DNA of 64,000 nucleotides from Geosiphon pyriformis uo1 (taxonomy: Eukaryota; Fungi; Glomeromycota): positions 130,087 through 194,086 of the forward strand of contig JAAOMT010000187.1 of assembly GCA_016748015.1 (NCBI GenBank). The letters run 5' to 3'. Shown piece after piece: positions 4,231-48,068 of this stretch. The position numbers and the translations under genes were made by a program. The notes beneath the pieces are model-generated. The model ran no database searches, was not told where the DNA came from, and saw only the letters and a list, made by a program, of their open reading frames with translations. Positions within the stretch are counted from its first letter, which is position 1; each line of letters begins with the position of its first letter.

Positions 4231-4263
4231 AGTGATGACATTGATCTCTGATAATTTTCTCAC

Positions 4264-4306
4264 CCAATCATTAGGTAAAAATTCATTGCGACGTGGCATC
4301 TAAATA
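4264..4306 (+). promoter_or_regulatory. Putative SEC31 proximal promoter: CCAAT (4264-4268), GACGTGGCA bZIP/UPRE-like site (4290-4298), TAAATA (4301-4306)
   Basis: Motifs lie in the ~110 nt of non-decayed sequence before the ATG. Function is inferred only. Confidence 0.4.
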
Positions 4307-4339
4307 GCACCTTATTCCACTTTCACTCTATTCGAAAAA

Positions 4340-14871: not shown

Positions 14872-17800
14872 TGGATTTGGTTTGGAAAATTGTTATGTGC
14901 AATGTTTGAGATATCAATGTTTCTGCTAAGCAGGAAGACATTGTTTGTTGGCATAGGAAATCAGGAAATTTGGTCTCGATTGTTACAGAAACAAAATTAA
15001 GGTCTAGCTATAGGCTGTGGATTAAGGATAGATTTGATGGTGTTTGGGTTTTTACTTCTGGTTTAAACACGAGTTTTCTTGGTGCTGGGGTGGCCATAAT
15101 CATGAACATCTCTCTGGCTCATCATGTGTGTAAAATTTCTGAGGTGCTTAGTTGGCTCTTTTCTATCAAGTTGCTTTTCAAAAATAAGCTGTTAGTGTTA
15201 ATTTTGGGGCTTTATACTGGTGCTTCTCTGGCTGTTTGTTTCACTTAAACAGGTAAAGTTAACTCTTTGATTGCAAAGGCTGTAAATGAGTCCTCTTTTG
15301 TTATCTTGGATGGTAATTTCAATGAAGATGAATTTCACAAATACACTAATTTCAAGAAATGCTCTGATTTTGGTCTGATCAACTCTTTGGGTAAGAGCTT
15401 ATTCATGAAGGTACTGACATGGAGCAATTCTCAAGGTGTCTCAAAAACAATTAATTACATGTTTGTTTCTTCAAGTTTGGCCAATGCAGTTGTGCATCAT
15501 GCTGTTTTGAATGTTAGTGAACATTTTGACACTGATTATCAAGCTGTTTTTGTGTTCATGGGCTTGAGTGGCTTGTTGGATGTGTGATTGAATTTTCTTC
15601 ACAAGCAAGTGAATAAAGATTGTTGGAAGTTTAATTTTAAGGGTGCTGATGATACAATATAGACCAGATTTAAAGATGCTTCAGCAGCTAATGCCACCAT
15701 GTTCTTTGATGATTTTATTGTTTTTGAGCAATTCTCAGATTTGGATGTGATATAGGATACTGTTCACAAGTTTGTTACATTGTCAGCTAATGAAATATTC
15801 AAAAAGAAATGGTTTAAAGACTTTGGTCACATCTTTATCAAAGAATCTTCGAAGTTTTATAGATTAGAACTTTTGGTTTCAAAGATTGTTAGGGCTTTTC
15901 ATAGAGCTGTTGTTGATGGTTTTGTTTCTCTTATAAAGTATTGGTGTTCTCTGGACAGTACTAAGACTTTGGTTATTTAGGATTTAGTGGACTCTGGTGC
16001 AACTTTTGATCATGTTTGTTCAGCTTTCTGTATCATCAGAAAATCTTATAGTGTGCTAAAATGTGTGAAATCTCTGAAAGCCAAGAAAGCGAACATTAGG
16101 TCTGTTATAGATAAAAAAATGGAGAGCTTTAAAACAAATAAGGGTCATACTATCAGAAGTGTATTGAAGTGTCCATTTTACAAGGTGGTGTTTGACCATC
16201 TAGTTGTCAATGATGAGCTGGTTCTAGAGTTTAGTTTGGTTAAGTCTAAGATGAATGCAATTATGAAGAGTTGGACTCAGAAATGTCAAATTGTCTCTGA
16301 TGTTTTTAGTGAGTGGCATTGTCAATATCAGCCTTTGGAATATGTTTTTGATAGAGCTTTTTCTGGTGTAATGTGTTCAATTGGATTTTATGAATTTTTT
16401 GGGGTGGTGTCTAATCTACCTGATGGCAAAGCTGCCAGTCTCTTGGATATCTCAAATGAACTTTGGAAGCATTGTGATAAATCTGTTCTGGACATGCTCT
16501 TGGTACTTTTGAATTCATGTTTGGTTGGTAGATCTGTGCCCAGTTCTTGGAAAGAGGCTTGGGTCTTGATGATTTCTAAGTGGGAAAACATTCTGACAAA
16601 TACTTGTCCTATTGCTTTGATTGAGATGGCTCACAAGATTCTTTTCAAGATTCTCTCTGATAGAATCTCCTCAGCTTGTAGTACTTTTGATGTTCTTTGT
16701 GGGAATAATTTTTTGGTTTTGAAGGGCACAACAATTCAGTCTCTTATTTTTGTGATCAGGTCAGTTATTGAAGATGCTTTGGAGAAAGACTGGAAGCTCT
16801 GACTAGTTCTGCAGGACATGTAGAAGGCATATAATTCAATAGGCTGGGAACATCTTGAGAAAAGTTTAGTCAGGATTAAGATGTGTGACAGATTCATTTG
16901 ATTTTTTGGTAGTATTCATAGAAATTGTATCAACCAAGTTATGATGGACTTTGGTTTAACGAATGGTTATCATATACATGATGGACTAGATCAAGAAGAG
17001 GTTTTTTCCTTCCTTTTGTAACACATATTTTATGATCCTCTGTTGTGTGAAGTCAAACATCAGGAGAGTGTGTGTGGATACAGAATCAATTCTCACTTTA
17101 TTTCCAAAAGTGGTTGTACTGAATCTCAGGCTGGATTTTCTTTTTTTTTGCTGCTGGTGCCTTTATTAACAATATGATTTGGGTTGGCAACAGTCAGAAT
17201 ACTACCCAACACATTCTTGATGTTGTTAGTAAATTTTTCCAGATTAATAACATTTCAATCAATAATAACAAAACTGTAGCCATTCCCATTAATAATAAAG
17301 TCAGCCACCCATCTCTTTTTATTAGTGGTTTGCTCATTTCTGTGGCCCGTAAAGAAAAATCTCATCAGTATCTTGGTATTTTTCTGTCGACTGAGGGTCT
17401 TTCTAAGCCTAGTTTGACTAAAGCACATTTGGACATTTGTTTCTTCACTAATTTGGTCTTGAAAAAAGCTGTTTCAGATAAGCAGTTTTTCATTTTATAA
17501 TTGGTTATAAAATACAGTTTAGCTTTGTTTCTATTAGTGTTTGCAACAAGTGGGATGCTTTAATTTGCAAGGGCTTAAAGCTGAAATCTGGTCTTCTGCT
17601 TGATTTTTCTGGTAATACTATTTACTATCCTTCTTTTTATGATTTAAAGTCTTTTTTACAATGTCAGTCTGAGAGTAAGATTGCTTCACTTATCAGTTTC
17701 ACAAACTCTGGTAGAATTCTGGGTCATTTGTTTAGTCACAGGTTTCATAACTTGCAAGTTCTATGTTGGTGCTCCCTCCATCCATTGAGTTTTCCTGCTT

Positions 17801-19504
17801 GTATTTATGTCAGTGCTTCTAATAATTTTTTGTTAGGTATGGTTTGCATTCTTCATGACTGCAATTTGTCTTTGGGTGGCTCTTTGACCAGCTCTTTTTG
17901 ATTTCGTGATGGGGTGCCTATATCTACTGTTCTGGGCAAGTCTTTGTTTTTCAAGTTTTTGCTTTCTCTCTGGCATTATGACATAGCCTTTATGAACCAG
18001 TTTCATGATCATCATGGTAATGTCTTTAACTGGTGCATCTTTAAGCAATGGAAGAAACTAGATCTTTGTGGGCCAGTTCTTGATTAGTTCAAGCTCTCTG
18101 TAGTATTTCTCATTGGTCTGCCCTTTTCTTTTCCAGCTTTGGGTAGTGTTGACTCTCTGAACATTTGCGGGTCCAGTGATTTTTTGTCTGTTTGCAATCA
18201 TCTTTCTCAGGTTGGCTCTGATAGTTTGTCTGTTTATACAGATAGTTCTTTCAAGAATTTGGACACAATTGGTTGTTGGGCTGGTGCTGCTGTCTTTTTT
18301 GAGGACATTAATTTGGGTTTGAGTATTAGTGTTCATGGTTTGGTATTATCTACTTTGGCAGAGTTACAGACTATTATCTTGGCCCTGGAGTGTATACCCA
18401 GGTCTTGCTCTGTTTGCTTGTTTTTAGATAGTCAAGCTGCTTTGGATGCTTGTAAATTGAAGCTAAATTTGATGCATTCTGATTTTTGCAATTGGTGTTG
18501 GGTCAAGCATCAGCATATTAACAATATTATTTGCAGTAAGAACTTAAAGGTCACTTGGTGCAAGGTCAAGAGCCACTTTAGCATTTTGGGAAATGACTGT
18601 GCTGACAGTCTTGCTGACACTTCTTTTTTCTCTGGGTGGTTTCTTTCTTCTTACATTGGTGAACATTTTTTGGTGGCCAATGGTGGTACAGTCTCTGGTA
18701 ATTCTAGGCACTTTGTTCAGGATGTGTTTCGTGCTGTTTATCATGTACATTGGAAGGTTGGTTCTGGTTCTGGTTTTTTGGTGGGTGGTTTGCTTTTAGA
18801 TGTTAATTGGCTCAGCTTTTCTCAGGTATGACATCTTAATTTGCATATGGCCATGGGTTTTACCAGCAGGTGCATTGCTAATACTTGTACCTACTTTGCA
18901 CCATCAACTTCCTATAGCTGTTCGAAAATGTCTCTATAATAAGTGCTATTTCAGTGTTCTATGCTTGTATTGTGGGGAGGTGGAAATGTCTGATTATGTG
19001 TTTTCTTGCACAATCAATATTTCTGCTTATCACAAGATTTTGGAGTTCTGTGCATCCTCTTGAAAGGAACTTTCTGGTCATTCTCTTCCTCTCTTGAGTG
19101 TTTTGCAGCTGTTGTCATCTTGTGCTTTGGATTTTTTGGTGTTCTCAGCTATTTTTAAGGATTTTGTTTTCAATGGGTGGTTTTCAGAGACTGTTTCTGT
19201 CTTCCATGATTCCAAAGTAGCTAGAATTAAAGTTGCTGAGTTTGTGCACTCTCTTTGTCTCACTTTCAGAGATAATATTTGGGTGGTTTATGCTAAGCAT
19301 TGCGTTTTTATGGAGAAACATAGGCTGATCCCAATAAATGGTTTAGCTCCCATCTCAGTTTCTGTCTTAGCTTTAAAGTTTTCAGCTGGTGTGATTAAAT
19401 TGCTTGGGATTTCTGAAGCTTTTGGTGTCTATTTTGGCTTTCACAAATCTTGTTTGTTTTTTTTAAGTATTAGTACCTTGGTTTCGGTTGATATATCTGC
19501 ATAG
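14868..19504 (+). pseudogene. LINE copy 2 ORF2 (APE-RT-RNase H-CCHC)
   Basis: VTETKL, GNFN; RT LQDM*KAYNSIGW and GLDQEEVFS; RNase H VYTDSS, AELQTI, LDSQ, KVKSHFSILGNDCAD; CLYCGEVEMSDYVFSC. Confidence 0.92.
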
Positions 19505-20921: not shown

Positions 20922-21899
20922 TGTTACCAGACGAAATTAAAGATATTATTTAGCATGAAATTATCTTATAATTCCTATCATTAATTAGCATATATTATCA
21001 TTTCAAATGATTACTTATTACATTAGCAAAAATATCCGAAATTATCATTTAATTAATAACCCAAATTGTACACAACACAAATGTAACCTAATTGTGATGA
21101 TCAATTATGCAATACCCCGAACTATGTAATATTCAGAAGTTCGCCGAAATTTGTAGAAATTCGCTGAAATAATTGATAGTTCACCGAAATATCTAATAGT
21201 TTGCCAAAATAACTTGTAGTTTGCCGAAATGTATCTTTAATTCAGCAAAATTGTAGAAAATAGCAAAGTTCAAGTTCATAGAATAGTGTTACAACAAGTT
21301 GTATAAAAGAAGAGCTTCTCTTTTTGAGAAAATATATCTTACTTTAGATTTATCACTTAGAACCATTTCTACACACAAAAGAAATAAATATCAAATAATT
21401 CGAAAAACCAAATTCTTTAAATTATTACACTTGGAGAATCCCCAAAACCCAACTAACATTTTGAAATTGATTAGCTACCAATTTCAATAAACTGTTAGTG
21501 ACTCCAGGCCTGGATAGAAAACGTTTCTCTTGACAAAAATTCTATTTCTTTTACATTTCTTTTATTTTCTTTTATTTTCTTAATCATAATCATTAGGGTA
21601 ACCTACAGACGAGATTCCTGTAGAAGAGTTGACTTTCACAGCAAAGTAACTACACATTTTTAGTAAGCTTCCAGACGAGCAATTCCTGGGAAAGAGTTGA
21701 CGTTTACTACAACGTAACTACATAAAGTAACTGGCAAGGAATTGGCCATTCCACTTATAAGCCCAGCAGTTCAAATTATAGGAGATAATTTGAAAATAAA
21801 TTCAGTTATTGGACATTCAACTACATCCAGAAAACGTGAATTTACAACAGACAGACATTAACAACATTTAAGAAAAGAGACCAAAAACCTCCAATAACA
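20922..21899 (+). repeat. A1 5' LTR (978 bp)
   Basis: TGTTACCAG...CCAATAACA; TATA-like TATAAAA at 21302; AATAAA at 21486; direct repeat of 30171-31106. Confidence 0.96.
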
Positions 21900-21901
21900 T
21901 T

Positions 21902-21917
21902 TGGTGCTCTCCCACGG
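21902..21917 (+). promoter_or_regulatory. Primer binding site TGGTGCTCTCCCACGG (tRNA not assigned)
   Basis: Starts 2 nt after the LTR with TGG; complementary to a tRNA-like 3' end CCGUG-GGAGAGC-A-CCA. Confidence 0.85.
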
Positions 21918-21941
21918 AAATAACACAGCAACAAATTCAAA

Positions 21942-24900
21942 GTGGCGACTGCCTTAGACATCACAACTTTAGAGTACTATCAATCGATTTACACACACTG
22001 CAAACAACGATTTGAAATACACAACGGAATTATAGCTTTCAAGAAAACACTTTTTCAATACATCGAAAATCGAATCAATGACTACCTCTTTGGGAACTAT
22101 AACATTACAACAGTTAAAAAAGATCTTCTTAAGAACATACTACACTATTCCAACACTGAATCAGAAAACATTAGTGCTGAAGCTTGCACTACTTATTTTG
22201 AGGAACTCGATTATAATATCATTCAATTCTGTGAAGAAAAATATCTTGTAAATGCACAATTTGCCTTTGAACTCGAATTTGAACCTGAAACCAGTAGCAA
22301 CAAAAGACAAAAAGATAACTGACCTGTTCATACAACACCCAATACTCCCAAAATATCATTCAAACATTTACAAACACCTGAACAAGGAACCAGCTCAAAA
22401 CTTTCACTTACTATCACACCTTTTCCAGCTTCATTTGCACAAGCCCAAACACCTAATTCACCCTTGAATCGATTTGCAAGACCAGAAGATTTTACATCAC
22501 TCAGAAGTCCCACCAGACAACAAGAACTCCTTCAAACTAGTTTCAATCTCCTTGATTTTCTAGCTAAAAACCAAAGTGAACACTCTGAGACAGCAGCAAA
22601 CGAAGAAAACAACTCTGAAATAACTAAAGAAGAATCAATAAACAGTGACAACAAAGAAAACGAAATGACAACATACATTGCAAAAATCCCTAAATTCAAT
22701 GGAGAAGATATTGAGACCAGTTCCCAAGAATGGCTCGACCAAGTTACCAAAGCAGAAGATGCAAATGGATGGAATGCTGCCAGAATGTTGAGAACAATTC
22801 CTTACTTTCTTAAAAAAACAGCAGAAGAATGGTTTGAAAACCTTGCCGCCCCATTCAATGATTGGAACGCTTTTAAAACAGCCTTCCTTGAACAGTTCAC
22901 TGACAATAATACCTCCATCACTCTTCACAATTGTTTTCGAAATATCAAACAAGAACCCTCTGAATCCATTATGACTTATATTGGAAAATTCAACAAACTT
23001 CTCAGACGGATTTGCCAACTTGAGACAAATGATTATTATTCCGATGCTCAAATCTTGGATCAATTTATTGCTGGTCTAAAAGATAAACTAATTAAAAAAA
23101 TTTGCCCACACACACCAGAAGATTTAAACTCTGCCATACAGCATGCGAAAAGATACGAAATGGCCATGGAAGAGACCAATTGTACAAAACTTGTAAATTT
23201 GGCAATTGAAGAAACCAGCTCAGCAACTGAGGAAAAAATTGACCAACTCACAAAGAAGATCAAAAACTATTTTACCAACCAACAACAACAACAACCCCAA
23301 AGATATCAACCACCCCAAAGACAAAATCAAAATAACTTTGCACCACTTTCCAATAACCAGCCCCAAAATTGCCATTATTGTGGAATCTCTGGCCACTGAA
23401 AAAGAGATTGTAGAAAGCTACAGTAAGACCAACAAAACAGGAGTAATCAACGTTACTCTTCACCACAGCAATCTTATTATCAACCATCACCACCAGCTTA
23501 CTATCCACCAAGACCCCAATACCAAAATAACTATTATCAGCCTGCCCCACAATCAATCCAACAGCAATACCAACAACCACCCACACAACATTATCAAGTA
23601 CCTACTCGAAGACTGATTACACAAAATCAATTCACACCACAAAACCAATACCAAGTAAACAACAATAGAATCAGTTTAAACAACCAATTGGTTCCCCGAA
23701 ATTCCACTCAACCAAGACCCAACCACTACCACACTCAACCCAGTTATTTAACAATGCCAGAAGAACAGAATTTTCACTATACTGCACTCTCGGAAGATAG
23801 AGCTGCAGCACAACAACAACAAAACCCTTCTCATAAACACACCACTATTCCACCAGCCCAAATTGCTGAAAATGCCAATCTCTCTGATATCTTTCCTTTT
23901 GAATTTGAAGCAAATAAATTACCATTCTTGCTTAGCAATACAGTGGCTAATGAGCAAAAAGCCATCACTGCAATATACACAGAAGCTGAAGTAGAAGGAA
24001 AGCCAATTCGCTTGATCCTAGACAGTGGATCCGCTGGAAGCATTATCATCTACCAGTTAATGCAACAGTTGAAAAGAAATGTCGACCGACCAGCTCAAAC
24101 AGTAATCGTCACTGCTAATGGCATAAAAAAGACACCAGTAGAAGAAATTGACAATTTTCCGTTCACTCTTGATGGAATCACCATTCTAGTCAAAGTTCTT
24201 GTAATGGATGCACCCCAGTACCAAGCTCTTGTCAGAAATAATTGGCTTCAAAAAGCCAATGCTAATCTGAATTGGGAAACACAAAAGTTAACAATCTCCT
24301 ACCAAGGACAACACGTCTGGGTACCTGCCATTTGTGGTACATTCAACAAATGCTTTGAAAAAGCCCCGGCTTTTGAATTTGAACCAGAAGAAGAAAAACC
24401 AATAATTGAAACATTCATGGCTCTTGGATCAACGTCCAACTGGGCTGATGAAACAAAACAAGAACATTTTACTCCACACACTAAATCCGAAACCTCTGGA
24501 TGGAATATACCTTACTCAAAACCTAAACTAAAGAAACGACGCCCCTATATTCCCCTTAAATATAGAGACTGCCACAAAAAACTATCGTCAATGAGAGCCT
24601 GCATTTCACCTGAAGAAGAATATGAGAATCATACTTGTTATTACTGTAAGGCTTGCCACAGAGAGCGATAGGGCCATCTAATAAAAAGGAGTGGAAAATG
24701 GGACAACACTCTTTGTTTGACTTGTGGAGATATGCTACCAGAAGAATGCAATTGGATTGATGTAGCAATGAGAGAAGGTGTTTGCAATCAGACCTGCCAA
24801 TATGCTTTATCAATTTCAAAAAAAGTAAAAAGAGGAACACCCTTTAATGCAGCATACAACAGTGCTCTCAACAAACTTTATTACTACCCTTATGATGCTG

Positions 24901-27554
24901 AGATGATTTTTGACTTAGCAATGACATTAATTAATGGAGCTACCAAAGAAGATGTTCGTCAAATGAAGGAAGCGGAATACATTGAATACACTATAGAATT
25001 AGCTGGATTCGATTATGAAAATGAAGTAGAAGTCTACCACCAAATTGCAAGTCACACCTATCCAACCCAAGAAGCTCAAATTCAACGATTAGAGCAAATG
25101 AACATTAGGCTATGTGAAAAATGCATTATGTCTTGCGATGAACAATAGTGTCTTGAATGCTATGCTCTTAGTATCCCCTTGCCCAGCGAAAATGATGAGA
25201 ATGAAATTGAATTTGGAGAACCTGAAGAAACGGAAGAAATTGAAACAACACCCATCTACCTTATCAAAAATCAGCCTGCCTTACAACTTAAATACTTCAA
25301 CAACAATGAACAAGGAATAAAACCCGAAAAAGCACACAAAATTGATGCTGGATATGACCTAAGATATCCAGGCAAGGATACTCTTGTTCTCAAACCCAAA
25401 TCTCTCACAAAAATCAACCTCAAAATTGCACTTGAAATCCTGCTAGGAGCAATGGTTTAAATCGCCTCCCAGTCCTCTCTGGCAAGCAAAGAAATCAATG
25501 TCAGAGGAGGAATAATCGATGCTGGATATACTGAAAACATAACAGTGATGCTTTAAAATGAAACTGACAAACCATTCAAGATTGAACATGCTGAAAAAAT
25601 TGCCCAAGCTATTTATCTACCCCTAATCAACATTTTGGGTTTACAACTAGTTAATCAAAGAGAGCAATTAAGAAAGAGCAATAGAGGAACCCAAGGTTTT
25701 GGTTCAACTGGATGATTCACAGTTCCAGTTAATATAGCTCTTAATACACAGAACAAATCCCACCAGATTCTCAGACTTTCACAACCGATTACCATCTCAC
25801 TCTTTGGAGAACATCTGGAAATCTACACCTGCCCAAAGCCAACAACCACACAACAAATTTTTGAGTCTAATGAGCAAGTCTGCTTGGAACATAATATTTC
25901 GATCCCAAACATTTATATTCCAGAAGAAACAAAGAAAGTCCGAGTTACTTTTTACAACCCCAATAATTACCCCATAATTTTATTAAATAATTTAGAAATT
26001 GGAGTTATTCACAGTAATATATTTCAACAAGAATTACCCCAAACAGTTCCCGATTTCTCTGAAATTATTGGACATTCAATACCAAAAATCAACCCAAACC
26101 CCAGCTCCGAAAACTACCATGTTGTCATGGAAAAACTATCTCAAATTAACATGGGACAACTTGAACCACAACAACAGACTCAGCTCAAAGAGCTAATTAC
26201 AGAATTTGCTGATATCTTTGCCGAAAACAACAATGACTTAGGAAGAATTGATTTGGTTCAACACCAAATCTATACAAGAAATGCCAAACCCAGGCGACAA
26301 CAAGCCTACTGAGTTGCTCCAGAAAGTCACCAATTTATCCGAGAAGAAGTACAACGGATGCTTAACAATAGGCTTATTCAACCATCAATAAGCCCATGGG
26401 CCTCACCCGTGGTCCTAGTTAAAAAGAAAAATGGAAAGATACGATTTTGTGTTGATTACTGACAACTCAACAGTGTCACCATTGGGGATGCCTACTCTCT
26501 TCCCTGAATTGATGACATGTTGGATGCCCTTGGAAAGTCCAAATACTTTTTGACATTAGATTTAGAGAGTGAATACTGGCAAGTTTCTATGGACCCCAAA
26601 GACCACCCCAAAACAGCATTTACCACTCAAGGAGGAAATTACGAGTTTAATGTAATGCCTTTTAGATTATGCAATGCACCAGCAACATTCCAAAGACTCA
26701 TGGATGTTGTTTACAAAGGCCTCCTTTGGAAATCAGTAGTAGTTTATTTTGATGACACTCATGTTTATTTACCATCTTTCGAGCTACATTTAATTCACTT
26801 ACAAGAAGTTTTTCAATGATTATGGAAAGCAGAATTGAAACTGAACATTGAAAAATGCTACTTTGGAAAAACAAGTTTAGCTTTTCTTGGTCACATTGTG
26901 AGCAAAGATGGAATTAAACCAGACCCTGGAAAAATCAGTACTGTCAAGAACTTCAAGACTCCATGAAATACCACAGAATTAAGAAGATTTATTGGATTAG
27001 CATCCTATTACCGAAAATTCATCAAAGGATTCTCAGAAATTGCAAAACCCCTCAACCAGCTCACTACTAAAAATGTCGAATACAAATAAACAGAAGAACA
27101 CCAAAATGCCTTTGAGATACTTAAAGAAAAACTCATAACAGCTCCAATCCTCACCTATCCAGATTTCAACAACCAATTCTGATTAGCAACTGACGCCTCT
27201 TATACTGCCTTTGGTGCCATCCTATCACAGTTAGATGACAATGGAAATGAGCAAGTAATTGCTTATGCTAGTAGAACATTAAAGCCAGCTGAAAAGAACT
27301 ACCCCACAACAGAATTAGAAACCGCAGCAGTAATCTGTTCCCTACATCACTTTAATCTTTACCTCAGACCCAAAGAATTTGATATTATCACTGATAATAT
27401 TGGACTTAAATGACTTCAGAACAAAAACACCCAGCTGAATGCAAAACAAACCCGATGGACAGGATTTTTAGTTAATTACCAATACATTGTACACCACAAA
27501 CCAGGAAAACTTCATACCAATGTTGATTGTCTCTCAAGAATGAGGCAAGATTAG
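21942..27554 (+). pseudogene. A1 polyprotein frame: N-terminal extension, Gag (ATG 22665, CCHC near 23370-23411), protease, Cys-rich insert, dUTPase, RT, RNase H
   Basis: All fragments share one frame. CHYCGISGH*KRDC; LILDSGSAGSII; SPWASPVVLVKKKNGKIRFCVDY; MPFRLCNAPATFQRLM; YFDD; LATDAS; NYPTTELE; HKPGKLHTNVDCLSR. Confidence 0.95.
25290..25712 (+). pseudogene. dut: dUTPase domain within A1 pol
   Basis: All five trimeric dUTPase motifs: AGYDL, IASQSSLA, GIIDAGYT, EKIAQ, RGTQGFGSTG. Confidence 0.95.
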
Positions 27555-27603
27555 AAAACAAAACCAATACCCATTTGAATTAACAGCATCAAAACAACAA
27601 ACA

Positions 27604-28989
27604 ATGAACCCTGAAAACTACAACAATCTCAAACAATATCTGGAGACATTAACAATCCCAACAGATTGGTCCCCAGACAAAAAACATCAGTTACAACAAC
27701 AAGCCAAACAATATTTTCTACACAACAACATTATCTATTATCGAAATTTCAAAAACCCAACCAAACCACTCAGATTAATACAAGAACAGAAAAAGGAGAC
27801 CATTTTATACAACATGCACTCAGATCCTTCATCAGCATACTTCGGAAAAGATAGCACCACCCAAAGAACACTAGAATATTACTTTTGGCCTCGAATGAGA
27901 AAAGACATTCACAAATATGTCAAATCTTGTGATAGTTGTCAAAGAAGAGGAGAAACTTGCCCTACAGAACCTTTAAATCCAATCAAAATTGGACAGCCTT
28001 TTGACAGAGTTGGTATCAATTTAGTCGGACCACTATCTATCACCACTTAAGGAAACCGTTATATTGCAGTAGCTGTAGACTATTTTACTAAATGGCCTAA
28101 AGCCAGAGCCATTCAATGAGCAGATGCGAAATCAGTAGCAAAATTCATCTACAAAGACATCATTTGTAGACACGGATGTCCAATTGAACTTTTATCTGAT
28201 CAAGGAACACACTTTGTGAACAACCTGATACAAGAAATTTGCGAACAATTTAATGTCAAAAGACCTCTGTCTTTGCCCTACCATCTACAAACAAATGGAC
28301 TTGTGGAATGTTTTAACAGAACATTGTGTGAGTCATTAGCCAAAGTCTCAACCAATTTTGAGCAAGAATGGGATCTCTTTATTCCATCAGTGTTACTAGC
28401 ATATAGGACATTAAAACAAGATACCACGAAACACACACTATTTGATTTAACTTATGGAAGGACGGCAACATTACCAATTAGTTTCACAGTGGAAACATAC
28501 CCAGCATAACCGATCGATGAAAACAATTTCTAAGAAACGCTTCAGCAAAGAGTCTACACTCTGCTTAGCACATTGGAAAGAAAATGACAAATAGCAGCCA
28601 CTCATATTGAACACTCCCAAGCTCAACAAAAAGAACGGCATGATAACAAATTGTTTTCAGCCACCAATGAATTTAAAATTGGAAACAAAGTTCTCTTACA
28701 CAGAACTAAAGCTGAAAAACAATGGAATAAAAAATTTGAAAATAAATGGGATGGACCATTTTTTATCCATGAAGTCCTAGACAACGGATCATACAAGCTA
28801 AGACTTGATAACAAAATCCTAGCAAAAGTTGCACATGGAGATTGTTTGAAACACTATCATTTCAGAAACAATCCTGAACCATTAATTCCACAAATTGGTA
28901 CACATTCCCCTTTGGTCAGTCCCGAAGACATTTCCCGAAACTTAGAACCAATAGTTGTCATTGAACAACCTTCCAACCTGAACACTTAA
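27604..28989 (+). pseudogene. A1 integrase ORF (461 codons), in a different frame from RT-RH
   Basis: HHCC-like MHSD...CDSC; GINLVGP; LLSDQGTHF; GLVECFN; KWDGPF (GPY/F). No chromodomain seen. Confidence 0.93.
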
Positions 28990-29168
28990 TTTAATTTTAC
29001 TAGTTATTTTCTTATAATTTAGAAACAATCTCACAAAAACAAAACAAAAATAACATAAAAACCCATACACCAAAAATAATTTTCTTTTATTTCAAATCGC
29101 TTATAATGACTATTCTCAAAACATTCAACAATTATCCCAAAAACTAATGTTAGCTTTAAAAACAATAC

Positions 29169-29188
29169 NNNNNNNNNNNNNNNNNNNN
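29169..29188. other. Assembly gap (20 N) with unmerged overlap: 28812-29168 repeated at 29189-29546
   Basis: The two flanking copies are identical apart from a 1-nt indel near the contig end. Confidence 0.92.
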
Positions 29189-29482
29189 CAAAATCCTAGC
29201 AAAAGTTGCACATGGAGATTGTTTGAAACACTATCATTTCAGAAACAATCCTGAACCATTAATTCCACAAATTGGTACACATTCCCCTTTGGTCAGTCCC
29301 GAAGACATTTCCCGAAACTTAGAACCAATAGTTGTCATTGAACAACCTTCCAACCTGAACACTTAATTTAATTTTACTAGTTATTTTCTTATAATTTAGA
29401 AACAATCTCACAAAAACAAAACAAAAATAACATAAAAACCCATACACCAAAAATAATTTTCTTTTATTTCAAATCGCTTATA

Positions 29483-30202
29483 ATGACTATTCCTCAAAAC
29501 ATTCAACAATTATCCCAAAAACTAATGTTAGCTTTAAAAACAATACCTGAATTATCCATTACTGTTACTAAAAACCACATTAATTATACCCAAACAGAAG
29601 TAGTTACAAATTTAGCCCCAAATTCATGAAAATATCACCCATATAAGAAAAACACAAGAAGTTATACTGGAATTCACCTGCCAGAACTTTTAAAGCTTGC
29701 TTTAAGAGAAAACCTAATGCTCACTCCAATTAGTATTCCACCAAATGCTACAAGTCAACAAAGACTTTAATTGTGTCTCAATGAGGAAAACACTGAATAT
29801 CCTCCAATCTATAGATATTTCCACATTAGAAAAACACTCTACGAACGGAAACTGGAACTTACAACAGCAAACCTCACAAAAGAAACTATTCAAAAACAAC
29901 TCCACAATGAATTCAAGACAACAGCTGGACCAACAAACAGTCGCTACAAGCTCAGAGCTGCTCTTAGACTTTATGACCTATTCCACACCTGTGAAAACAT
30001 ACTGCAAAACCCAATTTTTCAACCTTTGAAAATTCAATATATTGGAAAGCTTACAGAACTGAAATTTCAACAATTTTCAGACCAAATTTCTTCAATAATT
30101 TTGGATTATTATCTGGAAATAACAGACAGTATTTGGACTTTGATGAAGCTCAGTCTTAAAGAGGAGGTTATGTTATCAGACGAAATTAGAGATATTATTT
30201 AG
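29483..30202 (+). pseudogene. A1 ORF3: 239-codon accessory ORF of unknown function, reads through the PPT into the 3' LTR
   Basis: MTIPQNIQQL...YRYFHI...ALRLYDLF...IGKLTE...DEIRDII*; two internal stops; same length in A2; homologue in family B. Confidence 0.85.
30158..30167 (+). promoter_or_regulatory. Polypurine tract
   Basis: AAAGAGGAGG 3 nt before the 3' LTR (GAGGAGGAGG in A2). Confidence 0.85.
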
Positions 30203-31106
30203 CATAAAATTATCTTATAATTCCTATCATTAATTAGCATATATTATCATTTCAAATGATTACTTATTACATTAGCAAAAATGTCCGAAATTATCATTTA
30301 ATTATTAATCCAAATTGTATACAACACAAATGTAACCTAATTGCGATGATCAATCATGCAATACCCCAAACTATGTAACATTCAGAAGTTTGCCAAAATT
30401 TGTAGAAATTCGCTGAAATAACTTATAGTTCACCGAAATTTATCTTTAGTTCAGCAAAATTGTAGGAAATAGCAAAGTTCAAGTTTATAGAATAGTGTTA
30501 CAACAAGTTGTATAAAAAAAGAGCTTCTCTTTTCAAGAAAATGTATCTTATTCTAGATTTATCACTTAGAACTATTTCTATACACAAAAGAAATAAAAAT
30601 CAAATAATTTGAAAAACCAAATTCTTTAATTAGTACACTTGGAAAATTCCCAAAACCCAACTAACGTTTTGAAATTGATTAGCTACCAATTTCAATAAAC
30701 TGTTGGTAACTCTAGGCCTGGATAGAAAACGTTTCTCTTGACAAAAATTCTATTTCTTTTATATTTCTTTTATTTTCTTTTATTTTCCTATCATAATTAT
30801 TAGAGTAATCTATAGACGAGATTTCTGTAGAAGAGTTGACTTTCACAGCAAAATAACTACACATTTTTAGTGAGCTTCCAGATGAGCAATTTCTGGGAAA
30901 GAGTTGACGTTTACTACAACGTAACTACATAAAGTTACTGGCAAGGAATTGGCCATTCCACTTATAAGCCCAGCAGTTCAAATTATAGGAGATAATTTAA
31001 AGATAAATTCAGTTATTGGAGGTTCAACTACATCCAGAAAACGCAAATTTACAACAGACAGGCATCAACAACATTTAAGAAAAGAGACCAAAAACCTCCA
31101 GTAACA
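30171..31106 (+). repeat. A1 3' LTR (936 bp)
   Basis: TGTTATCAG...CCAGTAACA; lacks two of the 20-bp U3 units present in the 5' LTR. Confidence 0.96.
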
Positions 31107-31451
31107 CTGTATATTAGTTAAGCTAAATAATATTATATTAAATTCAAAATTTTTTTTATGTATAATAAATAATATTTTTTATTATTTGAATTTATAATTA
31201 TTTATTAATATTTATTATTTAAGTTTAATATAAAAAACTATTTTTTTTTGCCAAATAAGTTAAATAACTCTTAAATTCATAAAATTAAATAATAAATATT
31301 ATAAATAATATTATATAAAAAAAAAACTCTTTCTTTCATTGATCCCCTGGTCACAATGAGAACTTTGAGTTGTCACTGAAATAGCCTTCTTTTTCCCTTT
31401 CTCTTTCACCTTTCTCCAGTTATTTCTTCAGACATTCCCTCTTTTGTTGCT

Positions 31452-33407
31452 ATGGAACCAGTGGGCTTTGCTGCTGGTGGTTCTGGGTCCATTTCGGCTG
31501 GGTTGAGGACCCAGTCTGGTGTCAAAAATAAGCGCTTGGTTGGTCCTCATTCTCATGGTGCATCCTATAAGAAGCTGAAGAAATCTGTGGTGGTTGACGG
31601 GTTGGTGGAGTCGTCTGCTGGTGTTTTGAATGTTATGGATGAAAGTGGTGATGGATTTAACATTGGGCGATCGTGGGCTAGCAAAGTCAACAGCAAAGTG
31701 GACAGCGTGAATAGTGTCTCGGACTTGGATAATGTGGAAAACGTTGTTACTAAGGAAACTTGCTATGCAGAATCAGATGTTTCGGGTTTGAACGACAACA
31801 TGAATGATGCCATACCAAGGAAGACGCATACTCGCACCTATGTTCTGAACAGTAAGCCACCACCTCTTTTTTTCAATGTTCCAAGTGATGGTGAGGATAC
31901 TTTGTCTCTCCTGAGTCCCAAATTTTATGGATCCAATTGCCTTCCTCTAATCGGGTCATGTGCACCAGAGAAACGGAATTTTAATTTGTCAAAATTGTTT
32001 GCATTAGATATTGAGCTATCTGCCATTCCTGGCAAAACTAATAATGATAAAATGATCAGTTTGAAAAAAAATTTTTATCACATTGATGGGTTTGGGAGAG
32101 CCTCAACTCCCTCAAAATTCCCAGGAATCATCAGATCCTCATTTACATCTGAAATTAGTTTAAATAAGGCTAAGGAATTGGCAATCAGTGAGAAAATTTT
32201 AGTCAATGATAATCTGAGAAAATCAAGTGTCCGTTCAGATTGGGAAGTAATAGTCAAGGAGATCTCAGTGGATCTTTCCAGATTGGCGGTGGAGTCAGTT
32301 TTTTCCAAATTTGGCAAGGTTGTTTCAATCAAAATGCAGCTAATTGGTCTCTGGCAAAAGGCTCTGGTCGAATTTGAGTCATCTGAAGTAGCTAGTCTGG
32401 TTGCTTCCAAATAGTCAGTTCTCATGGGAAAGGATTTGGTGTGTGTGGCTTTGGCAATCAATGATAAACAAACGTGGATATCGAGAAATCAGCATCAGGC
32501 TTTGCTTTATACTCTTCCAGTTGGCACCAATGTCCATAATCTCTCCTGTTTGTTGGAGTCATATGGTGGAAAGACTTGTTACATTGGCTGTAATCCTAAT
32601 TCATATGTTTGTGATAGATGTGCTGTAATTTGTTTTGGTGATGAGGCATCTAAGTTGGCTGCTATTGATACTGTTCCAGTTTTCAAAGGTGTAAGTTTGC
32701 ATTGGGCTGGTCTTTTTTTGGCCAGTTGCACTCATTGTAAACAATTTGGTCATGTTATGGTCAACTGCTCCTTGGGTGAGTATTCTGGTGTTTGAGGGAA
32801 GAGGGTGGTTTCTGAGCAAGATTGGATTCGTCTAGCTGGGATATATAAGAAAAAGTCAGCTTCTATTGCTCATCCGGTCTCATTTGGTGGTAAAACATAG
32901 GCCCAAGTTGCTGGTGGCTCTCCTTTTCATGTGACTTTTTCTGATTTGATTGGTGCTGGTTTGCATTTTGGTTTGGTTTATTCTTCAATGGTGACTGACT
33001 CTCCTACCATTTCTCATTTGAATGACTGGCTGGCAATTTTGGAGCGCTCTTTGGAGCTTTTGACTGACCACGTTTCTGGCATTTTGGTTCGACTGGAATC
33101 CATTGATTTGGTTCCTGTAATGACCCCTTCTCTGAGCCTTCTTTCTGTTGTTTCTGAAACTTTGACTTCTAATGTGAATTCTGATATGATTATGAATACT
33201 GCTTTGGTCTCATCTGGTACTCCTCTATCTGTTATTTATAATGCTGTTGTTGAGTTCAGCTCTAGTAGTTCCAAAGTCCTCACTGCCAAAGTGGGTGGTT
33301 TGGAAACAAAATTGATTGCTTTGGAGGCCTTGGTTAGTTCAGTTTTGGATAAGTTAAATATTCTGTGCTCTGGTTCAGATTTGTCAGTTCCCCTGTCTTC
33401 TCAATGA
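31452..33407 (+). pseudogene. LINE copy 3 ORF1
   Basis: In-frame fragments; RRM-like segments; CTHCKQFGHVMVNC. Confidence 0.88.
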
Positions 33408-36400
33408 CTTACTTAATTTGGAAAATTGCCACATGTAATGTCAAAGGTATGAACAATTCTGCAAAACAGGAAGATATCATTCATTGGCACAAGAATATAA
33501 ACAATTTGATTTTTATTGTTACCGAGACCAAGCTAAAGGGTAAGGTCTGTCCATGGATTGCAACTAGGTTTGATGATGTTCGAGTCTTTACCTTAGATCA
33601 AGATTCTGGTAATCTGGGTTCGGGTGTTGCTATTGTTGTAAACAATTCTCTGGCTCGCCATGTGTATAAGGTTTCTGAGGTGCCTGGTCGGCTTCTCTCG
33701 ATTAAGTTGCTTTTTAAGAACAAACTTTTGGTATCAATTTTGGGGCTTTATGCTGGTGCTTCTCTGGCAGCCCATTTTTCTCAAGCTAGTGAAGTCAATT
33801 TTCTGATAGCTAGGGCTGTGAATGAGTTTTCTTTTGTTGTTTTGGGTGGTGATTTTAACGAAGATGGCTTTCACAAGTGTGCTAGTTTTAAGAAGTGTTT
33901 GGATTTGGGAATGGTTAATTCTCTGGCAGGGAATTCATTGGCAAAAAATCCTACCTGGAAAAATTCAAGGGGTGTTGTAAGAATTATTGATTATGTGTTC
34001 ATTTCATCAAATTTGGTCAATGTGATAGTGAGCCGAGACATTTTGGATGTTAGTGAGTATTTTGATACTGATCATCAAGCGGTTTGTGTGTCTGTGGGTT
34101 TGGGTGGGCTTTTGAATATGCATTTGAACTCTTTTTGTAGGAGGCAAATAGAGATCGATGAAAGTTTAACATTAGGGGTGCTGATGAAAGTAAATGGGAC
34201 AATTTCAGGTGTGTCACTTCGGCCAATGCAGTAATGTTCTCAGATAAGTTTGCCACCTCTGTAAGATTCTCAAATTTGGATGTAATGTGGGATGTCATTC
34301 GCAAGGTCATGGTGCTTTCAGCTGATGGTACTTTCAAAAAAAAATGGTTCAAGAACTTTAATAAAGTTTTCTCCAAGGAATCCTCAAAGTTTCACAAATT
34401 GGAGCTTTTGGTTTCTAAGATCATCAAGGCATCGTGTAAGAGAGATATTGTTGGTTTTGCTTCTTTCATGGATTGTTGAGCTTCTTTGGACAGTGTTAAG
34501 GCTTTAATCGTTCGGAATCTGATGGATTCTGGTATGGACTCTGGTCATGTTCTTTCTGCTCTCTTGAGCGCTCGGAAATCATATCATGCATCTAAGCTTG
34601 TTGAGTCTCAGAATGCCAAGGAGGCTAACATTAGATCAGCCATAGATAAGAGAATAGAAAGCTTTGAGGTCAATAAAGATCATATGATAAGGAGTGTGCT
34701 GGAGTGTCCATTTCGTAAGGTGGTGCTTGACCACTTGGTTGTTGATAGTAAGCTGGTTTTGGAGCCTGATCAGATTATGAGCAAGGTGGACATGATCATG
34801 GAGGATTGGACTAGGAAGCATCAGGTGGTTAATGATATGTCAAGCAAATAGTGTTGCCAATATTAGCCTTTGGAGTATGTTTTTGATGAGGCTTTTTCAG
34901 AGGTGATGTGTTCGATTGGTTTTGACAAGTTGTTTGGGGTGGTTTCCATCCTTCCTGATGGCAAAGCTGTTGGTCTGTCGGATATCTCAAATGAGCTTTG
35001 GAAACATTGTGATAGGTCTGTCTTGGAGATGTTATTGGTGCTTTTGAACGCTTACTTGGCTGGTGAATCAGTGCCTGGTCTATGGAGAGAGGCCTGGATT
35101 TCAATGATTCCCAAGTCTTATGAATGGGAGGATGTTCTGACAAATACACATCCTATTGTTTTGATCGAGACAGCTCGCAAGATTCTTTCCAAGGTTTTTT
35201 CTGATAGGATTTCTGCTGCATGCAGTACTTTCAATGTTTTTTATGAGGACAATTTTTTGGTTTTGAAGGGTATGACTACTCAGTCTCCCATTTTTGTGAT
35301 TGGTTCAGTAATTGAGGATGCTCTGGAAAAGAACCATAAGCTCTGGCTGGTGTTGCAGGATATGAAAAAGACTTATGATTCAGTTGGCTAAGAGCATCTT
35401 GAAAAAAGCCTGGTCAGGATTAAGATGTGCAGCAAGTTTATTCGGTTTTTTGGTAGTATACACAGGAGTCGCACCAATCGAGTAATAATGAATTTCAGTT
35501 TGACTGGTGGTTATTGTGTGTATGATGGCTTAGATCAAGGAGAAGTTTTTTTCCCCCTTCTGTAGTGCATTTTCTATGATTTTTTGTTGTGTGAAGTCAA
35601 ATGTCAGGAGAGTGTGTGTGAGTATAGGCTGAATTCGTACTTTATCTCTAAAAATGGATGTGCTGAGACTCGGGCTGGACTTTTTTCATTTTTTGCCACT
35701 GGTGCTTTTGTCGATGTTACAATTTGGGTTGGTAACAGTCAAGCTGCCACTCAGCACATTCTCGATGTCACCAGTGAATTTTTTTGGGTCAATGATATCT
35801 CTGTTAACAATAACAAAACAGTGGCCATTCCTATCAATAGCAGAGTCAGCAGTCTCTTCCTTTTTATTAGTGGCTTACCCATTTCTGTTGCCAAGAAGGG
35901 GGAACCTCATTGGTATCTGGGTATTTTTTTTTCAACTGAGGGTCTTTCGAAGCCGAGCTTGGCTAAGGCACATTCAGACATTCGCTTTTTCATTAATTTG
36001 GTTCTGAGAAAAGCTATTTCAGATAAACAATTCCTATACTTGATGTTGGCGGTTCTCCAGCCCATAATCAGTTATTGAACACAATTTAGTTTTATACTGG
36101 TTGGTGTTTGTGCCAAGTGGGATGTTCTGGTCCGCAAGAGCTTGAAGCTTAAGTCTGGCCTTCCACTTGATTTTTCCAGTGATACACTGCACCACCCTTC
36201 ATTTTATGGTTTGAAATCTTTCTCGCAGGTACAGTCTAAGTGTAAAGTGGCCTCTCTTGTCAGTTTTGTGAACTCTGATGGGATCTTGGGTCGCTTATTT
36301 TCTCACAGGTCTTACGACTTGCAAGTTCAGTGTTGGCATCCTGTTCATCCGTTAAATTTCCCTGTTTGAGTTAATATCAGTGCTTCCAACAACTTTTTGG

Positions 36401-38091
36401 CAGGCTTGATCCATATTCTTCTTAACTGCAATTTGTCTCTGGGTGAATCTTTTGTTAGTTTTTTTTGGTCTAGCAGTAGTGCACCTATGTCTACTGTTTT
36501 GGGCGAATTTAGGTTTTCCAAGTTTCTTCCTTCTTTCCGTCAGTTTGGCATTGTTTTTGTTAATCAACTTCATGATTGTTATAGTACCATCTTTGACTGG
36601 TATACCTTTAAGTAGTGGAAGAGGCTGGACCCCCATGGCCCCGTTCTGGAATAGTTCAGGCTTGCTACTGCGTTTTTCAATGATGCTTCTCTTCTTTCTG
36701 ATGATCAGTTTGTCTCAGATGGTGTTGTTTATTAAGATATTCTTGGTTCTGCTGATTATGCTTCTGTTTGTGGTCGTCTTTCTCAGGTCATTTCTGGTAG
36801 CTTGTCTGTTTACATGGACAGATCTTTGAAAAGTTTGGGTACTGCTGGCTGTAGAACTGGTGCTGCTGCTTTTTTTGAGGACATTGGTTTGGGTTTGGGA
36901 GTTGGTGTATTGGGCTTGATGTCATCCACCCTTGCAGAATTGCAGGCTATTGCATTGGCCTTGGAGTGTGTCTCTTCATCCTGTTCTGTTTGCATGTTTT
37001 CTGATAGTCAGTCTGCTTTGAATGCTTGTGAGTCAGAAATGGATCTTGTGTGTTCTGACTTTTGTAATCAGTATTGGGTTGAGCATCGGCATATTACTAA
37101 TGTTATTTGTAGTAAAAATTTGAGAGTTAGTTGGCACAAGATCAAAGGTCACTCTGGCATTTCTGGTAATGAGTGTGCTGATGAAATTGCTGGTGTTGTC
37201 TCTTTTTCCAGTTGGCATCTGCATCCTTGCTTGGATGAACATTTTCTGGTGGCTGATGGTGGTGTGGTTTCAGGCAATTCAAGACATTTTGTTCGTAATA
37301 TTTGCCAATTGATTTGTCGCACATGCTGGAAAGTTGGTTCTGGTGCTAGGTTTTTGAAGGATGATATACTTTTTGATGTTGACTGGTTCCGCTCTTCTAT
37401 GGTCTGGCATCCTGACTTGCATATGGCCACTGGCTCCACTAGCAGGCCCTTGGCTAATGCTCGTACCTATTTCATAAAGGCTCTGCATCACTGGTTACCT
37501 GTTGCTGTGAGGAAGCATCTTTATAATAAATGTTACCCTAGTGTGCTGTGTTTATATTGTGGTGATGTGAAGTCTTTGGATTATGTGTTCTTTTGTAAGG
37601 TCAATGATTCTGCTCATAGTCAGATATTGGATTCTCACATGGCTTCTTGGAAGGCTCTTACTGATTTGTCACTCTCCTCGTCGGCTGTAATGCAGCTTTT
37701 GTCATCTTGTGCTTCTGATTTCTCTGTGTTTGTGGCTCTATGCAAGAGTTTTGTGTTTAATGATTGGTTTTGCGAGGCTGTTTCTGTGTTCCGTGATCCC
37801 AAAATTACAGGACTGGAGGTGGTTAAGTTTGTGCACTCTCTTGGTCTTGCCTTTAGGGATGATGTTTGGATGGTTCGTGCTAAGCATCGTGCTTACATAG
37901 AGAAAGCCAAGTTAATTCTGTTGGATGGTTCAACACCTGTTTCAGTCTCTGGTCTGGTTTTGGGGTTTTCTGCTGGTGTTGTCAAGCTGTTTGGCATCAC
38001 TGAGGCTGTGGGCATTCATTTTGGTTTTCATAAACCATGTTTATTTTTTTCTGGTGTAGGCAGTTTAGTTTCAGTTCGTATATCTGAGTAG
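33404..38091 (+). pseudogene. LINE copy 3 ORF2 (APE-RT-RNase H-CCHC)
   Basis: ATCNVKG, TETKL, LGGDFN, IDY, TDH; LQDMKKTYDSVG, GLDQGEVF; AELQAI, FSDSQ, HKIKGHSGISGNECAD; CLYCG...FFC. Confidence 0.94.
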
Positions 38092-48058: not shown

Positions 48059-48068
48059 TGTTATTCAT

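Follow-up and report, generated by a model that had tools for sequence, protein, structure and literature searches.

In LTR retrotransposons and retroviruses, keeping the integrase (IN) as a part of Pol is the normal answer to the problems of dosage and packaging. This norm is consistent with the accessible text of PMC3248453 and PMC7828637, and the standard description of Ty3/Gypsy elements in the former places the integrase inside the Pol polyprotein. The location of a dUTPase between protease (PR) and reverse transcriptase (RT) has already been described in fungal Gypsy elements (PMC2864245). PosPlaTy3-5 of Postia, the Phanerochaete elements and Tmt1 of Tuber have such a dUTPase and extra ORFs of unknown function, as does the element described here, and rotifer LTR elements carry a dUTPase plus an ORF3 (accessible parts of PMC2864245, PMC5408684, PMC6431247). 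Unlike this element, neither group is reported there to have a separate integrase.

We analysed a 64-kb stretch of DNA (the window) that contains a 10.2-kb LTR element, copy A, whose host is a Geosiphon-type fungus. In the G. pyriformis genome, 41% of the sequence consists of LTR elements, according to the accessible text of PMC11952901. The features are:

20922-21899, + strand: 5' LTR (TG...CA), with a TATA-like site near 21301 and no ATG from 21300 to the LTR end
21602-21725, + strand: duplicated two-hairpin module in the LTR, no Rfam match
21902-21917, + strand: site resembling a primer-binding site (PBS; TGGTG...), similar sites at related loci
21942-22664, + strand: extension at the Gag N-terminus, an open frame that lacks an AUG in phase and matches no Pfam family; GUG at 21942 (A at -3, G at +4) is the candidate start
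22665-23940, + strand: Gag from the first in-frame AUG, with Ty3-type capsid, CCHC knuckle (read from the translation) and Gln/Pro-rich tail (Pfam PF03732, PF19259)
23943-24302, + strand: aspartic protease (domain search)
24510-25199, + strand: Cys-rich insert with several CxxC pairs (translation; no family match)
25323-25712, + strand: dUTPase domain (Pfam PF00692, E 7e-20), interrupted by stops in this copy
26160-27554, + strand: RT and RNase H (RH), ending at TAG 27552-27554
27555-27603, + strand: spacer from the Pol stop to the integrase AUG, 49 nt, A/C-rich, AUG-free
27604-28989, + strand: stand-alone integrase ORF, ATG at 27604, +1 frame, with H2C2 zinc finger, core and GPF/SH3 tail
29169-29546, + strand: 20-N gap and second copy of 28812-29168, likely an assembly artefact
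29483-30202, + strand: ORF3, 239 codons, crossing the polypurine tract (PPT) and overlapping the 3' LTR by 32 nt
30158-30167, + strand: PPT, within the ORF3 reading frame
30171-31106, + strand: 3' LTR (TG...CA)
57053-58596, - strand: family B fragment, integrase tail and ORF3 homologue, then its own LTR
58601-64000, - strand: second copy, A2, covering dUTPase to 3' LTR, truncated where the window ends

Domains, LTRs and coordinates agree with the three-ORF layout claimed in an earlier note on this DNA: a single frame runs in the order extension-Gag-PR-Cys-rich-dUTPase-RT-RH to a stop, followed by separate ORFs for the integrase and ORF3. The element shares with Ty3/Gypsy elements (Metaviridae), yeast Ty3 included, direct TG...CA LTRs, PBS, PPT, a Ty3-type capsid, and Gypsy-type Gag, PR, RT, RH and IN in the order PR-RT-RH-IN. 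It differs from them by an integrase outside the Pol polyprotein, a non-env ORF3 and an AUG-free Gag extension. The Ty3/Gypsy class itself rests on domain order, not on integrase fusion. The best solved relatives are the Ty3 RT (4ol8, E 6e-93) for RT and Ty3 Gag-Pol (7q5b, E 8e-49) for the integrase. We found no env in the element, and no chromodomain in the integrase P0002 or in the precomputed domains of the 120 homologues listed; chromodomain (chromovirus) rows branch elsewhere in our quick tree.

Copy A is dead, with 17, 5 and 2 stops in the long frame, the integrase and ORF3, respectively, and an Asn in place of the first catalytic Asp of the integrase. The LTRs are 89.9% identical over 978 columns, 42 gap columns counted, and the flanks of this decayed copy (CTCAT left, CTGTA right) do not match as a target-site duplication. 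The frame is nevertheless legible: Gag, PR, dUTPase, RT and RH follow one another in 21900-27554 with the 17 in-frame stops and zero frameshifts, each region having 2-8 stops in its own frame versus 8-39 in the other two. Variation among copies was assessed with A2, with named proteins and with the contigs of a single DNA run, and the listed contigs of that run showed no majority indel over 21880-27160. The 358-nt duplication (28812-29168 and 29189-29546) is likely an assembly artefact because it borders the 20-N gap and is missing in A2. No tRNA gene was found in the window.

A2 is collinear with A from dUTPase to LTR, as the earlier note had it, at 87.5% identity, with the same TAG and a 46-nt spacer. 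Transitions make up 409 of the 468 substitutions between the two, and four internal stops, at mutation-prone codons, are common to both, so that these two copies alone are insufficient to prove the RH stop original. Family B was said to share the zinc ribbon, dUTPase start and ORF3. It does have the ORF3 homologue (57697-57092, HMM iE 7.7e-31), but the CxxC-x8-CxxC stretch and dUTPase start (56487-56050) are assigned to a separate fragment because they lie beyond the LTR of family B.

Comparison with relatives shows that the integrase split is inherited and is not a product of decay: intact relatives show the same layout as the decayed copy A. A methionine occupies the column of A's Met1 in 102 of the 120 integrase homologues listed, 97 of which begin there. 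Of 28 metagenome loci in which IN follows RH, 20 have a stop after RH; the other eight encode a fused RH-IN, and every one is a 33-38% relative. Among 87 long proteins, five scored in the lineage range, of which three are missing the end of RH, the start of IN or both, and one has a 105-aa linker. P0248 is a true RT-IN fusion, placed outside the core branch. By the same comparison the trait is broad, reaching proteins of R. irregularis (which carries intact integrase ORFs) and R. clarus as well as soil contigs, and is not the quirk of one family. Viral contigs yielded one fused distant relative, and prokaryote genomes four lineage-like contigs along with distant integrases and IS-type matches.

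A core branch unites 15 of the 18 split rows (UFBoot/SH-aLRT 86/89); the remaining three fall in a polytomy, and all 18 are united in 6% of bootstrap trees. The link to the Athila/Tat side is tentative: plant rows and the lineage share a branch with support 99 in the quick tree (61 rows, leaving out 11 long or divergent proteins and three multi-element loci), but the careful tree (33 of these rows) shows only a polytomy there and carries a long-branch warning, and neither tree includes named reference elements. The RT-only tree was distorted by long branches and placed three partial split rows elsewhere. By eye, the integrase N-terminus of the lineage has the Y..P..Y/F..Y spacing of Gypsy groups with a YPYY integrase (Athila/Tat relatives, Gypsy-1-I_RO, DGLT-A), a motif taken from the accessible text of PMC2836005.

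ORF3 is predicted to be a conserved family of soluble helical proteins and not an env. The highest 19-residue hydropathy of seven ORF3s is 0.59-1.07, which indicates no transmembrane segment, and ORF3 matched no Pfam family, including fusion-protein, GDSL and DEDDy families; the rotifer ORF3s are of env, GDSL or DEDDy type. An initial structural model was poor (pLDDT 44) and a later one confident. Foldseek searches of PDB and viral libraries gave no match at E <= 0.001 (VIA best Z 4.4); in the structure atlas the best match (0.88) is unnamed, and DUF1016_N (0.85) is no more than a lead. Neither Pfam nor the structure searches connected ORF3 with TAV. Homology across families is supported (HHalign probability 93%, E 3e-7), and 23 of the 120 Geosiphon ORF3 proteins listed have exactly 239 aa. 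Many 'hypothetical proteins' of G. pyriformis are copies of ORF3. Neither ORF3 nor the dUTPase occurs throughout the lineage: ORF3 is present at 15 and missing from eight of 23 split-integrase loci, and the dUTPase occurs at one of five related loci spanning PR-RT.

The leader, previously called structured and almost AUG-free, is indeed almost AUG-free: 21300-22664 contains two ATG versus 14.0 in shuffles (0 of 200 shuffles as low). Structure is confined to the two-hairpin module and one of 14 windows with z below -2.5; window z-scores do not support a globally stable fold (z = +0.37 at 21590-21760), and nothing in the element matches Rfam. The extension is depleted in ATG in all seven elements (e.g., 0 vs 8.0, 0 vs 5.7 and 2 vs 8.5) and in none of seven RT/IN controls. 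In all six relatives a pyrimidine (T or C) stands at -3 of the first AUG. The candidate GUG start of A was chosen from its context and loose-end sequence of one other subfamily. An AUG-free extension behind a weak or GUG start points to leaky scanning. This extension and the hairpin described below are new here. We rejected homology of the extension of A with the HxxxH/CxxC extension of its relatives (probability 0.2%), and of its Cys-rich insert with the Cys-rich tails that follow RH (best E 0.39).

The RH-IN gaps range from -8 to 727 nt and fall in all three frames (10/7/3 modulo 3 at 20 junctions), which excludes a conserved frameshift or readthrough. An A at -3 is found at 22 of 33 integrase starts versus 60 of 190 internal AUGs. 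Of 30 integrase starts preceded by an ORF, seven overlap its stop (-1, -4 or -8), and at one junction of IN and ORF3 the sequence is ATGA. In the 50 nt upstream of IN there are 11 ATG where 29.7 are expected (34 loci), and in those upstream of ORF3 none where 13.5 are expected (15 loci). The AUG-free stretch ahead of the start has a median length of 121 nt at IN and 111 nt at ORF3, versus 44.5 nt at internal AUGs. One subclade has a covarying hairpin directly 5' of the integrase AUG: 44 nt, 96.6% of 88 cells paired and double changes in seven of nine pairs, the structure being derived from the same sequences that show its covariation. Its model has 13 matches among 86 sources, all directly upstream of IN and three outside the training set. 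It has none in the window, being missing from A and most loci, and the 10 motif loci gave no Rfam match.

Arguing from sequence and from analogy, we give about even odds to the following account: the element is a mutation-killed copy of a Ty3/Gypsy lineage whose Pol ends after RH and whose integrase and ORF3 each have a separate ORF and start codon, likely expressed from one polycistronic RNA by leaky scanning and restart. The observed part is the layout, the inherited split, the conserved integrase methionine, the free length and frame of the spacer, and the AUG depletion. Ribosomes would start at a weak first codon (GUG in A; in relatives, an AUG that has a pyrimidine at -3) or scan past the whole AUG-free extension and start at the following AUG of the same frame, giving long and short Gag-Pol forms. 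With Gag and Pol in one frame, every ribosome would reach the RH stop, and a small fraction would restart at the overlapping or nearby integrase AUG, making integrase at low stoichiometry. ORF3 might come from a second restart or a short RNA. Free integrase would have to bind RNA or Gag to get into particles, like the Pol of foamy viruses. ORF3 would be a dispensable accessory whose most likely targets are RNA or protein, with a role in translation, packaging or silencing, and the dUTPase a sporadic capture. Against restart, A has no recognisable helper element, and restart after long ORFs is poor in eukaryotes lacking a helper element or protein (accessible text of PMC5902531). The spacers of three loci (L014, L018, L022), of 365-727 nt with 7-12 AUGs, are not crossable by a single stop-and-scan.

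These long spacers would suit integrase and ORF3 made from their own subgenomic RNAs, by splicing from the LTR leader or internal promoters, like foamy-virus Pol and env-type ORF3s (PMC7828637, PMC5408684, in their accessible parts), which we regard as possible if the less probable course. An AUG-poor zone of about 100 nt upstream of IN and ORF3 fits a short 5' UTR equally well, the integrase start context is good, and a T-rich tract ending TTTAG, like a fungal 3' splice site, precedes ORF3 in A and A2. Yet before IN there is neither YAG excess (24 of 33 vs 25.9 shuffled) nor a common TATA, the spacers of L003, L023 and L039 have no AG, A2 has lost the one possible acceptor of the spacer in A, and recurrent exact stop/start overlaps would be unneeded. 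Internal ribosome entry at IN, with the subclade's hairpin as entry element, seems unlikely. Its covariation, its constant position at all 13 matches and the lack of an Rfam match speak for it; its absence from A and most loci, and a structure drawn from the same sequences, speak against, and it could equally be a restart tether or packaging signal. Typical IRESs are also much larger than 44 nt.

A standard RT-RH-IN fusion still made by frameshift, readthrough or a stop-removing intron is largely refuted and very improbable. The +1 offset is common to A and A2, and RT is joined to IN in four eukaryotic gene models and one true ORF, but the joined models lose conserved RH or IN residues, gaps reach 727 nt, and in many loci a stop closes the IN frame 0-7 codons ahead of the conserved methionine. 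The variable frames rule out a Ty1/Ty3-type +1 frameshift, and a 42-nt candidate intron would not fix the frame and lacks its AG in A2. The reading of split and ORF3 as decay accidents of an ordinary gag-pol element could appeal to the transition stops of the copy, four of them common to A and A2, but it is refuted by the same layout in intact relatives, and by the exact ORF3 length and cross-family ORF3 homology given above. The element does not collapse to a standard gag-pol, in line with the proposal of a lineage with its own expression strategy. A bolder and rather doubtful extension of the polycistronic account is that an old Glomeromycotina LTR lineage dissolved its polyprotein into an operon-like RNA, with long and short Gag by leaky scanning, RT-RH, IN and ORF3 by serial restart, and Gag-PR split from RT in some members; ORF3 would be a new fold, a TAV-like restart factor or an integrase-packaging adaptor, and the hairpin a new class of fungal restart element.

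Having dropped the Pol-integrase fusion, the whole lineage must solve dosage and packaging otherwise. It provides a natural test case in fungi for ribosomes that restart translation beyond a very long ORF, and the intact integrase ORFs of R. irregularis make the mechanism testable with existing RNA data. The suggestion that the combination is undescribed stands for the full layout, on which we found no publication, but not for the dUTPase placement; among the sources available to us none describes the lineage, and Repbase, GyDB, Dfam or supplements could still hold such a layout. The comparison with complex retroviruses was overstated, as we saw neither env nor any sign of spliced accessory-gene regulation, and the layout is nearer to the polycistronic RNAs of plant pararetroviruses. 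Pararetroviruses (CaMV, RTBV) and stop-restart systems (CHV1, HvV190S, SART1, caliciviruses) likewise line up their ORFs in tandem, overlapping or separated by short gaps, have a first start that is weak or not an AUG ahead of AUG-free ORFs, and carry an accessory ORF at the 3' end (accessible parts of PMC5902531, PMC10275272). CHV1, HvV190S, SART1 and CaMV are the precedents for stop-restart (PMC10275272), and RTBV for leaky scanning across 900 AUG-free nt (PMC5902531). None of these systems has an integrase ORF in an LTR element, and restart is proposed here from the sequence. Foamy viruses (Spumaretrovirinae) also make an enzyme apart from Gag and package it through RNA (PMC7828637, accessible text), but in them all of Pol, along with its integrase, is made separately from a spliced RNA, whereas here the integrase alone is separate and env is lacking. 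Ginger1 has a stand-alone Gypsy-type integrase too, with TIRs and no RT, in contrast to the direct LTRs and upstream RT-RH of our element; the lineage suggests a path by which stand-alone integrase transposons of this kind could arise from Gypsy elements.

Element A, judged on its domains and their order, is a Ty3/Gypsy element; a chromovirus, an env-bearing element and a Ginger transposon were each rejected as its identity. Its main features are:

20922-31106, + strand: element A, bounded by LTRs of 978 and 936 nt
21902, + strand: PBS-like site (primer site)
29483-30202, + strand: third ORF (ORF3), 239 codons, ending within the 3' LTR
30158-30167, + strand: purine tract (PPT), covered by ORF3

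The two LTRs are 89.9% identical (978 columns, 42 of them gaps), and comparison of the flanks revealed no target-site duplication. A single frame (21900-27554) encodes Gag, protease (PR), a Cys-rich insert, dUTPase, RT and RNase H (RH), with 17 stops and zero frameshifts. Stops were much rarer in this frame than in the alternative frames in every region, and no majority indel was seen over 21880-27160 among contigs from one DNA run. The frame closes with TAG (27552-54). After a spacer of 49 nt, an integrase (IN) of 461 codons begins at ATG 27604, in the +1 frame. A 358-nt duplication adjoining a 20-N gap in A is likely an assembly artefact. The second copy, A2 (58601-64000, - strand), has the same layout with a 46-nt spacer, and transitions make up 409 of the 468 substitutions between the copies. 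The earlier note had proposed a three-ORF design for A and collinearity of A2, and both were confirmed: the Gag-to-RH frame, the stop, the separate IN and the ORF3 reaching the LTR are all present. Four internal stops are common to A and A2, so the originality of the RH stop is not provable from these two copies alone.

The separation of IN from Pol is inherited; decay as its source is scarcely credible. An integrase search returned 737 proteins, of which the best 120 were nearly all stand-alone integrases of 390-455 aa from soil contigs, R. irregularis and R. clarus. A's Met1 aligns with a Met in 102 of these 120, and 97 start at that position. Examples of intact IN ORFs in R. irregularis are P0129, P0161, P0169 and P0219. 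Since this search had left out fusions by length, we ran a control search for fused proteins: five of 87 long proteins fell within the score range of the lineage (268-421 bits), the remainder scoring at most 199. Of those five, P0248 is a true fusion. The other four, three of them missing the end of RH and/or the start of IN and one with a linker of 105 aa, were taken as intron-joined gene models, judged from the proteins alone. In metagenome DNA, a stop follows RH in 20 of the 28 loci having RH then IN (the 20 include near-duplicates, e.g., L007/L008 and L003/L039), and all eight fused loci are relatives at 33-38%. In trees built on joined RT-RH and IN, one branch unites 15 of the 18 split rows (UFBoot/SH-aLRT 86/89), the other three lying in a polytomy alongside fused rows; A groups with rows from Cetraspora and R. 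clarus (97/98). A quick tree and the IN N-terminus suggested a possible kinship to the YPYY group, a signal that was weaker in a later tree; this group is described as related to Athila/Tat in the available text of PMC2836005.

How the separate IN is produced can be weighed from the junctions. The RH-IN gaps range from -8 to 727 nt with all three frames represented (20 junctions), so neither readthrough nor a conserved frameshift can account for IN. A hidden RT-RH-IN fusion is very improbable. Gag-Pol is not depleted in AUG (106 against 99.8), hence IN is out of reach for cap-derived scanning. We give an even chance to a restart of ribosomes after the Pol stop. Several features favour it: integrase starts overlap the preceding stop exactly or nearly in seven of 30 cases, as do some IN/ORF3 junctions; ATGA links chain the ORFs of the metagenome locus L015; the short spacers are AUG-free; and neither an acceptor nor a TATA signal is seen. 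However, three spacers are long and AUG-rich, an acceptor-like tract precedes A's ORF3, and long upstream ORFs are known to make restart difficult. Moreover, the AUG-poor zone of about 100 nt suits a short 5' UTR equally well, as would be expected of a subgenomic RNA, which we regard as a less likely source of IN. Internal entry at IN appears improbable. The routes may differ between members of the lineage.

One subclade has a covarying 44-nt hairpin immediately 5' of the integrase AUG (a short outer stem and a purine-rich bulge, then a stem of 6 bp and a loop of 8 nt), with double changes in seven of nine pairs. Its model gave 13 matches across 86 sources, each immediately 5' of an integrase AUG, none in the window; the hairpin had no match in Rfam. 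The loci are:

L004:186-229
L007:1130-1173
L008:4464-4507
L010:295-338
Further loci: L012, L019, L020, L026, L028, L041, L050, L082, L006

Several relatives show additional arrangements. Some also have Gag-PR apart from RT-RH, giving four or more successive ORFs:

L022:505-3360 / 3394-6705
L014:3-872 / 1008-2489
L034:1-3138

In L015, two additional ORFs precede the integrase with ATGA overlaps (3-524, 521-1237, 1234-2436), the second matching a restriction-endonuclease domain (Pfam Mrr_cat_2, E 5e-9). Long acidic Cys/His-rich tails follow RH in one subclade (L008:3497-4441, L022:4945-6705, L012:2-544, L019:1-348, L083); they had no family match, and homology to A's Cys-rich insert was not clear. 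Lineage integrases also occur on short contigs within bacterial genome bins (L082-L085 and protein P0366), one of them the bin of an endobacterium of an AM fungus, and are likely contamination from the host fungus.

The leader of A had been described as structured and nearly AUG-free. The second part held: two ATG occur between the TATA-like site and the first in-frame AUG (21300-22664), against 14.0 in shuffles. Structure was found in part, as a two-hairpin module duplicated in tandem within the LTR (21602-21725), whose second-copy stems are altered yet still pair; the leader has no unusual overall stability. The extension N-terminal to Gag is open over 255 codons with zero in-frame AUG, and a GUG in strong context at 21942 is a candidate start. 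In six relatives the extension opens, 43-78 nt past the PBS, with an AUG whose -3 position is T or C; in the four where it is visible, another in-frame AUG, this one preceded by A at -3, comes 490-1080 nt further on. ATG depletion affects seven of seven extensions and none of seven RT/IN controls. The pattern is that of leaky scanning as reported for RTBV in the accessible part of PMC5902531, and would yield Gag-Pol in a long and a short form. No homology was detectable between A's extension and those of relatives, which share a conserved HxxxH...CxxC...FWxW pattern, likely a zinc-binding domain, with no Pfam match:

L001:3226-
L008:6804-
L010:2501-
L022:505-
L045:3147-

All 120 ORF3 matches listed were from Geosiphon pyriformis (identity up to 91%), 23 of them of exactly 239 aa, which assigns the window to this fungus or to one closely related. 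An ORF3 type of 190-240 aa comprises the Geosiphon families and three further proteins, and one of 120-230 aa lies 3' of IN at metagenome loci; their profiles match each other (probability 93%, E 3.2e-7). Among the 23 lineage loci with 450 nt or more of downstream sequence, an HMM detected ORF3 in 15, of which 13 had been in its training set; among nine fused or distant loci it detected none. IN directly abuts PPT and LTR in L005, L016 and L031, and ORF3 is therefore not required in cis. ORF3 showed no transmembrane stretch and no Pfam match. The predicted structure of the L010 protein is confident and all-helical (pLDDT 94, pTM 0.88), with no clear match in PDB and viral libraries (best Z 4.4). 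In the fused-type element L066, two ORFs lie beyond the integrase stop; we take their starts to be P-loop kinase-like.

The dUTPase occurs in A, A2 and one fragment of the related family B, and elsewhere in one of five related loci spanning PR to RT (L055). Counted earlier as part of a distinctive design, it is present in A and is not what is novel in the lineage: the available texts describe it at the same position in PosPlaTy3-5 and in rotifer and planarian elements (PMC2864245, PMC5408684, PMC6431247). The sharing proposed for family B held for ORF3, of which B has a homologue in the window; the dUTPase start stems from a separate fragment beyond B's LTR. Other sequences in the window are:

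1-286: end of another A-type LTR
38648-40108: degenerate, expanded A-type LTR
48031-51605 and 55401-56500: AT-eroded family-B derivatives with deletions, in the order LTR, Cys-ribbon and dUTPase start, ORF3 tail, LTR
~290-3100 (- strand), 13500-19500, 31380-38200, 41500-46400: diverged copies with endonuclease, RT and RNase H-like pieces, presumably LINE-like from their translations
~4340-9323, + strand: host gene with introns, its start presumably Sec31-like
54695-55207: tandem array, 57-nt period

In the passages of the literature available to us, surveys of AM-fungal transposable elements among them, no LTR element is described whose integrase has a start of its own. The idea of a lineage with its own expression strategy and accessory genes is partly supported: it stands for the inherited split and the recurrent ORF3, and falls for the dUTPase. 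The complex-retrovirus-like label goes too far: A's layout and presumed workings are closer to the polycistronic RNA of plant pararetroviruses than to a complex retrovirus.
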